Source of the DNA: a virus
Taxonomy: Duplodnaviria > Heunggongvirae > Uroviricota > Caudoviricetes
Virus record (IMG/VR): IMGVR_UViG_2737471845_000015
Span: 1-12,708 of that record
Length of the DNA: 12,708 bases
Direction: 5' to 3' (one strand)
The notes beneath the pieces are model-generated. The model did not search any database. It was not told the origin of the DNA and was given only the letters and a program-made list of their open reading frames with translations. The first letter of the stretch is position 1, and each line of letters opens with the position of its first letter. The position numbers were made by a program, and so were the translations under genes. Positions 7,466 through 7,818 of the stretch are shown here, piece by piece.

Positions 7466-7708
7466 ATGGGCAAAGAATATAAAACTCTCATTAACAAAGC
7501 ACTTGAGCGTTTTTATTTTCGCTTAAGTGCATCAGGCGCTCATGCTGAACGTGCAGCCCGTGACTCATTGACCAGGGCAATCCGGAGTCTGTATGACGTG
7601 GCTTTTTACGCTGATGATCTGGATGCACTTAACGAACTTTCCGAGCTGATCTGTGCCGCAGAATGCGGGGAACATATTGAACCGTATAAGCTGGGGAATA
7701 TTGCATGA
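7466..7708 (+). CDS. Hypothetical early protein
   Basis: 80-aa ORF, MGKEYKTLINKALERFYFRL..., start 11 nt after the upstream stop; its stop overlaps the next start (ATGA). Confidence 0.5.
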   Translation: MGKEYKTLINKALERFYFRLSASGAHAERAARDSLTRAIRSLYDVAFYADDLDALNELSELICAAECGEHIEPYKLGNIA

Positions 7709-7818
7709 GTATATTTATCTCATGGCTTGTTCTGATTATTTCGGTGGCCTGCGCCATTGGGATTATGCGAATTATTCATTCAGTAAAAAAGATTGAACGC
7801 TTTTTCACTGGTGAATAA
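7705..7818 (+). CDS. Small hydrophobic peptide (37 aa, single predicted TM helix)
   Basis: Not in the ORF track (too short). ATG at 7705 overlaps the upstream stop (gcATGAgt). Translation MSIFISWLVLIISVACAIGIMRIIHSVKKIERFFTGE, stop TAA 7816-7818: a hydrophobic core followed by a basic tail. Confidence 0.4.
   Translation: MSIFISWLVLIISVACAIGIMRIIHSVKKIERFFTGE

Follow-up and report, generated by a model that had tools for sequence, protein, structure and literature searches.

A conserved 37-codon gene for a predicted membrane peptide, coupled to DUF4754 in the early operon of P88-like Escherichia coli prophages

The window analyzed here is the whole 12,708-nucleotide (nt) stretch of tailed-phage DNA in IMG/VR record IMGVR_UViG_2737471845_000015, and the element in question is a 37-codon open reading frame (ORF) at 7705..7818 on the + strand, immediately 3' to a DUF4754 gene. 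An earlier note on this DNA had proposed an unannotated gene for a small hydrophobic peptide at this position, overlapping its upstream neighbor by ATGA and encoding a single transmembrane-like core and a basic tail. Translation of the ORF gave MSIFISWLVLIISVACAIGIMRIIHSVKKIERFFTGE, an exact match to the peptide proposed there, and the ATG (7705-7707) was found to overlap the TGA of DUF4754 (7706-7708) in the context 'gcATGAgt'. The ORF and its immediate flanks contain the following features.

7466..7708, + strand: DUF4754 gene, 80 amino acids (aa), helical, the upstream coupled gene; full-length Pfam match, E=2.8e-54
7693..7698, + strand: Shine-Dalgarno-like GGGGAA, 8 nt 5' of the ATG, within the last DUF4754 codons
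7705..7708, + strand: ATGA start/stop overlap shared with the DUF4754 gene, a translational coupling signal
7705..7818, + strand: small ORF, 37 codons plus TAA; product MSIFISWLVLIISVACAIGIMRIIHSVKKIERFFTGE, 100% identical to phage P88 gp07
7711..7767, + strand: predicted transmembrane helix IFISWLVLIISVACAIGIM, codons 3-21, from hydropathy and an AlphaFold2 (AF2) model
7768..7815, + strand: basic amphipathic juxtamembrane tail RIIHSVKKIERFFTGE, codons 22-37, from charge and hydrophobic moment
7785..7790, + strand: A6 run, a slippage site giving 30-aa (…KKD) or 45-50-aa (…KRLNAFSL…) variants in some genomes
7801..7805, + strand: T5 run (T6 with CGT at codon 32), where a -1 frameshift gives 45-aa variants (…ERFSLVNNDTNKTSN) in 11 of 197 loci
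7819..7911, + strand: 93-nt spacer that closes the conserved block; it includes a conserved inverted repeat, TCCGT-atta-ACGGA (7864-7877)

Since the window contains 143 ORFs of at least 30 aa, the length of this ORF is no evidence by itself, and the case for a gene rests on comparative data. About 200 loci anchored on DUF4754 were collected from IMG/VR contigs, E. albertii, and annotated records. The ATGA was kept in 129 of 131 distinct 560-nt locus variants, with one GTGA and one broken DUF4754 as the remainder; counted over the peptide-carrying loci, including those with a DUF4754 only 26-40% identical to that of the window, ATGA was present in 207 of 208 and GTGA in 1 of 208. Every junction variant carried a G-rich motif (GGGG, GGGA, GAGG, GGAG or AGGGG) at an equal distance to the start, and this Shine-Dalgarno-like motif was kept although the C-terminus of DUF4754 in which it is embedded varies (…KLGNIA, …YVQVAA, …LIEELA, …LIEGET). 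The ratios of nonsynonymous to synonymous differences per site (pN/pS), pooled by the Nei-Gojobori method (NG86), were as follows.

Annotated frame of the small ORF: 0.28
Its two other forward frames: 1.26 and 0.99
Its three antisense frames: 1.20, 0.40 and 1.10
DUF4754 in its own frame: 0.20

A tree-free count of variants over 62 alleles, evaluated with a binomial test, gave 25 synonymous changes over 24.3 sites and 33 nonsynonymous changes over 83.7 sites in the small ORF, a per-site nonsynonymous/synonymous ratio of 0.38 (p=4e-4), with ratios of about 1 in the other two forward frames (p=0.5-0.6). The signal was concentrated in the transmembrane codons 3-21 (ratio 0.29, p=4e-4), in which every replacement was hydrophobic for hydrophobic. 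Nucleotide diversity per site was distributed as listed here.

Small ORF, transmembrane codons: 0.047, the lowest in the neighborhood
Small ORF, tail codons: 0.080
DUF4754: 0.099
Spacer: 0.20
Next gene, 5' end: 0.47

By this measure the small ORF was shown to be the best-conserved gene of its block.

Divergent relatives were identified by a profile search of 1.84 billion representatives, which returned 17 matches, all from the same family and including 41-aa forms such as MSVFLSWVILIISVLMAIGIMRIIEALKNIESLFTGEERRK; no remote relatives were found in that search. The 41-aa forms (P0148, P0149, P0151, P0035) are 54-84% identical to the window peptide and belong to other P2-like E. coli prophages. 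They resemble it in architecture, ATGA overlap, and synteny, the order at the divergent loci (L202-L210) being int, C, cox … DUF4761, DUF4754, peptide (4-nt overlap) … gene A. They differ from it in four extra basic C-terminal residues (…FTG[DE]xRRK, KRHK or KHHK), in a position 16 at which Cys is not conserved, and in a partner DUF4754 that is far more divergent, 26-40% identical to that of the window against 54-84% for the peptide. Compared with these orthologues, the window peptide had a pN of 0.20-0.28 and a pS of 0.55-0.81, at which synonymous sites are near saturation; the pN of DUF4754 was 0.46-0.54. Two of the loci combine the genes differently. L209 pairs a window-like DUF4754 (82% identical) with a 41-aa peptide type that elsewhere lies beside a 40%-identical DUF4754, and this mixed combination is evidence for modular reassortment. 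Conversely, L202 has a 40%-identical DUF4754 next to a peptide whose residues 1-24 are identical to those of the window. At L209 (GCA_900536625.1, locus 1-4126) a Mu-type transposase gene, and not the int/C/cox switch, precedes the DUF4761-DUF4754-peptide block. The conservation of the ORF and its frame-specific synonymous excess set it above chance, and together with the retained ATGA and the conserved divergent forms these substitution patterns indicate that the 37-codon ORF is a real gene and that purifying selection acts on it, on this frame alone. Frame conservation in relatives, judged by synonymous versus non-synonymous changes, had been named beforehand as one test on which the gene should stand or fall, and the gene passed it.

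The peptide was 37 aa long at 183, 45 aa at 11, and 30 aa at 3 of 197 loci, counts in which the re-fetched IMG/VR contigs L133-L165 enter twice. The homopolymer slippage alleles alter only the last residues, and a synonymous CGC>CGT change extends the T run to T6. These alleles recur, some of them in clusters with dozens of members, and are therefore more than sequencing errors. In Escherichia phage 503458 (L201, NC_049341.1 30027-31194), several indels disrupt the DUF4754 gene, annotated there as 70 aa, as well as the small ORF; its peptide copy (57% identity) was set aside as an uninformative comparison, the indels reflecting either a poor assembly or a pseudogene.

The description of the gene as unannotated did not hold, and was true only for the length-filtered ORF track used in the earlier note. 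The identical protein is already recorded as P88 gp07 (YP_009113050.1, 'membrane protein') and in Citrobacter phage Shae_phiSM, as the RefSeq/PGAP entry WP_000021656.1 (hypothetical protein, from E. coli O103:H2 12009 and every spread-sampled genome), and in UniRef/UniProt as A0A069FJJ5 and as 'Prophage membrane protein' entries; another phage record, URC09552.1, calls it 'putative membrane protein'. P88 gp07 also lies after DUF4754 with the 4-nt overlap and differs in nothing, so that the two are the same gene, and full-length homology, position and overlap, and the helix with its basic tail all place the window peptide in the P88 gp07-type family. The gene is thus not new but ordinary and already catalogued. 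Its exact peptide sequence was found on at least 1000 contigs, and a 141-nt query around the ORF was present in 1354 of 5426 complete E. coli genomes, the host strains including enterohemorrhagic E. coli O157, O145, and O103 and sequence type ST131. The family is limited to Enterobacteriaceae prophages and overwhelmingly to E. coli, with further copies in Shigella, E. albertii, E. fergusonii, Salmonella enterica, and the Citrobacter rodentium phage phiSM. One locus (L004, NZ_JBQPOM010000071.1) lies on a 226-kb contig titled Vagococcus sp. WN89Y, in which the E. coli prophage block has a 98%-identical DUF4754; this assembly is probably contaminated or mislabelled.

The predicted product is a small membrane protein. 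Residues 3-21 have a mean Kyte-Doolittle hydropathy of 2.68 and sum to about -2.9 kcal/mol on the Hessa scale, and residues 22-37 have 4 K/R against 2 D/E, a net charge of +2, and a high hydrophobic moment; the hydropathy and charge distribution thus agree with the single core and basic tail that had been described. The AF2 model was a single continuous helix over residues 2-34 with a predicted local distance difference test score (pLDDT) of 87. The topology is probably N-out/C-in by the positive-inside rule, because only Met-Ser precedes the core and the positive charges follow it. The positions conserved across the family are S6, W7, S/A13, A17, G19, [RK]22, I23, I24, K28, I30, E31, F34, T35, G36, and [DE]37, and the tail pattern [RK]II..[IL]K.IE..FTG[DE] is retained in the divergent 41-aa forms. 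These positions make up a small-residue helix stripe and a tail motif, an arrangement that would suit a helix packing against a partner. Small membrane proteins under 45-50 aa are inserted post-translationally and often act by binding larger membrane proteins (PMC12648545). At 37 residues, the peptide is shorter than the ribosome exit tunnel, which points to post-translational insertion by the signal recognition particle (SRP)/YidC/SecYEG route (PMC12648545).

The region of the window around the gene is 85-97% identical to P88-like phages (Xuanwuvirus, Peduoviridae; P2-related), and prophages matching it at the same level were found in 1412 of 5426 complete E. coli genomes. Its layout is a P2-type switch followed by an early operon, with the following elements in addition to those listed above.

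5094-6215, - strand: P2-type integrase
6423..6452, + strand: strong Pe-like early promoter TTGACA-18-TATATT (11/12), a consensus match only and the presumed driver of the operon
6525-6803: cox-like gene, after the Pe-like promoter
6818-7156: DUF4761 gene, followed by one further ORF and then DUF4754
10407 to the window end: replication gene A, open at the window end

The switch includes a helix-turn-helix (HTH) repressor gene on the - strand, and the Pe-like promoter lies between it and the cox-like gene, as in P2. On the + strand between Pe and the small ORF, no separating terminator-like site was found save for weak consensus matches. Beyond the 93-nt spacer lie accessory genes (phrog_9338, phrog_3459, and a MarR-like winged HTH protein). 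The promoter, the neighbor families, the ATGA, and the conservation together uphold the proposal of a genuine, translationally coupled gene for a small hydrophobic peptide within a phage early operon. The DUF4754 protein gave a confident AF2 model (pLDDT 88.8) of a generic helical bundle; Foldseek searches of the model against PDB and BFVD returned no match at E<=0.001, and a PDB profile search with DUF4754 found nothing.

Considering these data as a whole, we favor with reasonable confidence the explanation that the gene encodes a 37-residue bitopic inner-membrane protein of P88-like prophages, made early in lytic growth, that modulates a larger membrane partner. In this mechanism, the peptide would be made only when the C-type repressor releases Pe, upon infection or induction, and ribosomes terminating on DUF4754 would re-initiate at the overlapping ATG. 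The peptide would then be inserted post-translationally into the inner membrane by the SRP/YidC/SecYEG route, with its two-residue N-terminus to the periplasm and its K/R-rich amphipathic tail on the cytoplasmic face. As a non-enzymatic peptide, it would bind, helix to helix, a larger protein of the inner membrane, encoded by the host or possibly by the phage, making contact via the stripe S6/W7, S/A13, A17, and G19 and the tail motif IE..FTG[DE]. The partner would be modulated during early lytic development, with the divisome, cell-wall synthesis, and membrane energetics as the obvious candidates. A conserved target is favored because the peptide is more conserved than any neighboring gene, because it reassorts independently of DUF4754 alleles (L209, L202), and because it closes the conserved block near the promoter, where a mosaic junction follows.

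Several results weigh against this explanation. Searches of the peptide against Pfam, PHROGs, NCBIfam, and PADLOC gave nothing meaningful (best matches PET117 at E=0.19 and phrog_5620 at E=0.38), a sequence profile search against PDB gave chance matches only, and comparison with Fil and Dhr of phage 186 and Orf78 of P2 revealed no homology. The supplements of a ribosome-profiling paper on small genes of O157:H7 Sakai do not contain the peptide sequence; Pe is expected to be repressed in lysogens. The tail codons 22-37 had a ratio of 0.58, which was not significant among close alleles, and frameshift alleles that swap the last 5-9 residues occur at about 6% of loci, so that either the extreme C-terminus may be dispensable or the prophages that carry these alleles may be decaying. 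Finally, the binding of a partner is suggested by the class of protein to which the peptide belongs rather than by the peptide itself. Literature searches with the peptide sequence, DUF4754, the accessions, and Xuanwuvirus retrieved nothing functional, and the papers on P88 and phiSM do not discuss the gene.

We further considered whether the ORF could owe its conservation to something other than a mature membrane peptide. That the true coding frame is the overlapping ORF 7653..7796 (+ strand; GTG/TTG start, 39-47 aa, …LNRISWGILHEYIYLMACSDYFGG…) was judged the most improbable of all the alternatives: this ORF is open in most loci and, from the TTG start, two codons longer than the 37-aa frame, but its substitutions are neutral (pN/pS 0.99-1.26, with no synonymous excess at p=0.5-0.6) and it has neither an ATG nor a coupling signal. 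An ORF that stays open and yet evolves neutrally also illustrates that persistence alone is no proof of coding. Scarcely more credible is a signal peptide or lipoprotein precursor that releases a cationic peptide of about 20 residues. Residues 12-16, ISVAC, match the generic lipobox pattern, and A-C-A is a conceivable signal peptidase I site; however, the region before the hydrophobic core has no K/R, and in the abundant 41-aa members P0148 and P0151 Cys16 is replaced by Met or Phe and position -3 of the putative A-x-A by Leu or Ile. With neither Cys16 nor the A-x-A site conserved, and with no charged N-terminus, the peptide is unlike lipoprotein and secreted precursors, and this reading was ruled out. 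It is also very unlikely that the amino-acid sequence is irrelevant and that the ORF serves only to keep ribosomes on the mRNA against Rho-dependent polarity, or to position them for the downstream genes. Such a role would suit the end of a string of coupled genes before a 93-nt untranslated spacer, but it does not account for frame-specific purifying selection on the amino-acid sequence, for a core with only conservative hydrophobic replacements, or for a peptide still 54-84% identical where the neighboring protein has fallen to 26-40%.

Among functional alternatives, it is possible, though we hold it only tentatively, that the peptide serves a complex with DUF4754 as its membrane anchor or small subunit, with coupling that fixes the stoichiometry and a helix that tethers the soluble helical DUF4754 to the inner membrane. 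The two genes are always adjacent with overlapping start and stop (208/208 peptide-carrying loci), and the small, helical DUF4754 protein lacks a fold match as well as a function of its own. The reassortment seen at L209 and L202 argues against an obligate co-evolving complex, and a DUF4754 reduced to 26-40% identity beside a peptide at 54-84% is unlike tight co-evolution. A membrane-damaging toxin, similar to type I toxins or a small pore former, which would oligomerize, collapse the proton motive force, and shut down the host early, is unlikely. Its size, single transmembrane helix, and short charged tail fit the general description of type I membrane toxins (PMC12648545). Its early position close to the promoter, subject to repression in the lysogen, also speaks for such a role. 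Against it, no antisense RNA family of Rfam was found at or near 7705-7818 (the Rfam matches of the window lie at 9478-9675), promoter-like sites on the - strand were no more frequent than in shuffled sequence, the ORF is coupled within the operon with no promoter of its own and no structured silent leader, and toxin and defense profiles did not match the peptide. Early depolarization would presumably also harm a phage that needs about 1 h more of host energy. A depolarizing role of the type I toxin kind is thus less likely than host takeover through a membrane partner. The latter, in its strict form, would make the peptide a dedicated effector and its family a new one of phage-encoded inhibitors, small and transmembrane, whose binding partner would be an essential, conserved protein of the E. 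coli inner membrane, with the divisome, the lipid II pathway, or an insertase as candidate targets during early lytic growth; we regard this as a possibility to be held about as loosely as the anchor. If true, the conservation of the peptide above all neighboring genes would mirror that of its host target, and a naturally optimized, ready-made 37-residue inhibitor would be present in about a quarter of E. coli genomes.

Comparison with known systems bears on the favored explanation, a modulator of a larger membrane partner, and on host takeover in particular. In phage 186 the corresponding slot holds fil, a cell division inhibitor, and dhr, which inhibits host DNA replication. Like the window gene, these are small accessory genes in a promoter-proximal position of the early lytic operon of a P2-family phage; fil and dhr overlap one another and are followed by a structured intergenic break. 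Fil (75 aa) and Dhr (66 aa) differ from the peptide in not being N-terminal transmembrane peptides, and neither P2 Orf78 nor 186 Dhr is hydrophobic. A similarity of the tail IMRIIHSV to the Fil C-terminus IIRIVHFV was rejected as chance, as BLASTP gave no alignment. For the phage cell-division inhibitors 186 Fil, lambda Kil, DicB, T7 Gp0.4, and PhiNM1 Gp11, no homology was detected by the Fil alignment or by Pfam, PHROG, and NCBIfam. Gp11, a small membrane protein from the early genes of the S. aureus phage PhiNM1, blocks division through its binding to the host membrane proteins MurG and DivIC (PMC11237401). It differs from the window peptide in the phylum of its host, in the absence of detected homology, and in a function that was shown experimentally. 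Gp56 of the B. subtilis phage SPO1 is a further example of this kind. The 186 fil/dhr position and the PhiNM1 Gp11 precedent make plausible a part in host takeover or in the inhibition of division, as the earlier note had suggested.

Type I toxins (Hok, TisB, Ldr, Ibs, ShoB etc.) are under 60 aa, with one transmembrane helix and a short charged extension, and are sometimes prophage-borne (PMC12648545). The peptide shares their small, hydrophobic, single-helix build, but it is coupled in an operon with no promoter or leader of its own, and no Rfam antitoxin RNA was detected, although computation could not prove a novel RNA to be absent. It is unlike holins and pinholins in its location, flanked in the early operon by the cox-like gene and gene A and not placed beside an endolysin in a late lysis cassette, and in its length of 37 aa, against some 60-150 aa for typical holins, which have one or more transmembrane segments and a charged C-terminus. 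The host regulators of the MgrB, AcrZ, MgtS, and SgrT class are similar to it in size, single helix, and lack of a catalytic domain, and differ in that the peptide is phage-encoded, lies in an early-lytic context, and has no homology to them. The action expected of this class of small inner-membrane regulators is the binding of larger membrane proteins (PMC12648545). A partner of the peptide, if identified, could expose a host vulnerability used by P2-family phages and bring a phage protein into the growing class of small membrane-protein regulators. The 37-codon ORF is also an example of gene validation from comparative data alone. No other element of the accessory early block is as conserved, and the prophage lineage that carries it occurs in about 25% of the complete E. 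coli genomes.

The spacer 3' to the gene contains a conserved element, GAAAAC(c)ATCCG-N4-6-CGGAGG, at 7854-7898 of the window, which is kept at loci where DUF4754 is only 26-40% identical (CCGCtcacGCGG, CCGCaacgGCGG, CCGCatctGCGG). Its hairpin has no following T-run on the + strand, and on the - strand it scores as terminator-like (TGGTTTTCAC follows). The element is also readable in the window as a 14-codon GTG mini-ORF (MKTIRINGGIRTRK, then a stop codon), the frame of which continues into the next gene in phage 503458 (and probably P88), forms the N-terminus of 105-108-aa genes in L012 and L086, and is lost in L203 and L207. The element could be an RNA hairpin, a protein site, or vestigial coding sequence. 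CCGT/ACGG and CCGC/GCGG may form a compensatory pair, but the CCGA…ACGG and CCGT…ATGG variants and the mini-ORF alternative make this reading doubtful. The mosaic junction follows directly after the spacer, from 7912 of the window onward (loci L001-L210), and nucleotide diversity rises across it from 0.05-0.08 to 0.47. At least 10 unrelated or highly divergent genes follow the same spacer, with products of 67, 71, 92, 105, 122, 136-138, and 148 aa and others, each starting about 86-94 nt past the stop codon of the peptide.

Two further observations concern the rest of the window. A lambda-type large terminase of 699 aa with GpA ATPase and nuclease domains is encoded at 1324-3971 on the - strand, and this gene and a DUF1441 protein gene are found immediately to the left of the P2-type integrase, so that the window covers either the junction between two adjacent prophages or a composite element. 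On the + strand, Rfam matches to isrK (61.8 bits, 9478-9552) and C4 antisense RNA (76.8 bits, 9588-9675) fall inside a 371-aa ORF at 8923..10038. They coincide with Phage_ASH, the one Pfam match of that ORF (residues 182-273, about nt 9466-9741), and this ORF may not be the product expressed there. The segment 9478-9675 looks like a P1/P7 immI-like or isrK-type RNA module inside a P2-type early operon.

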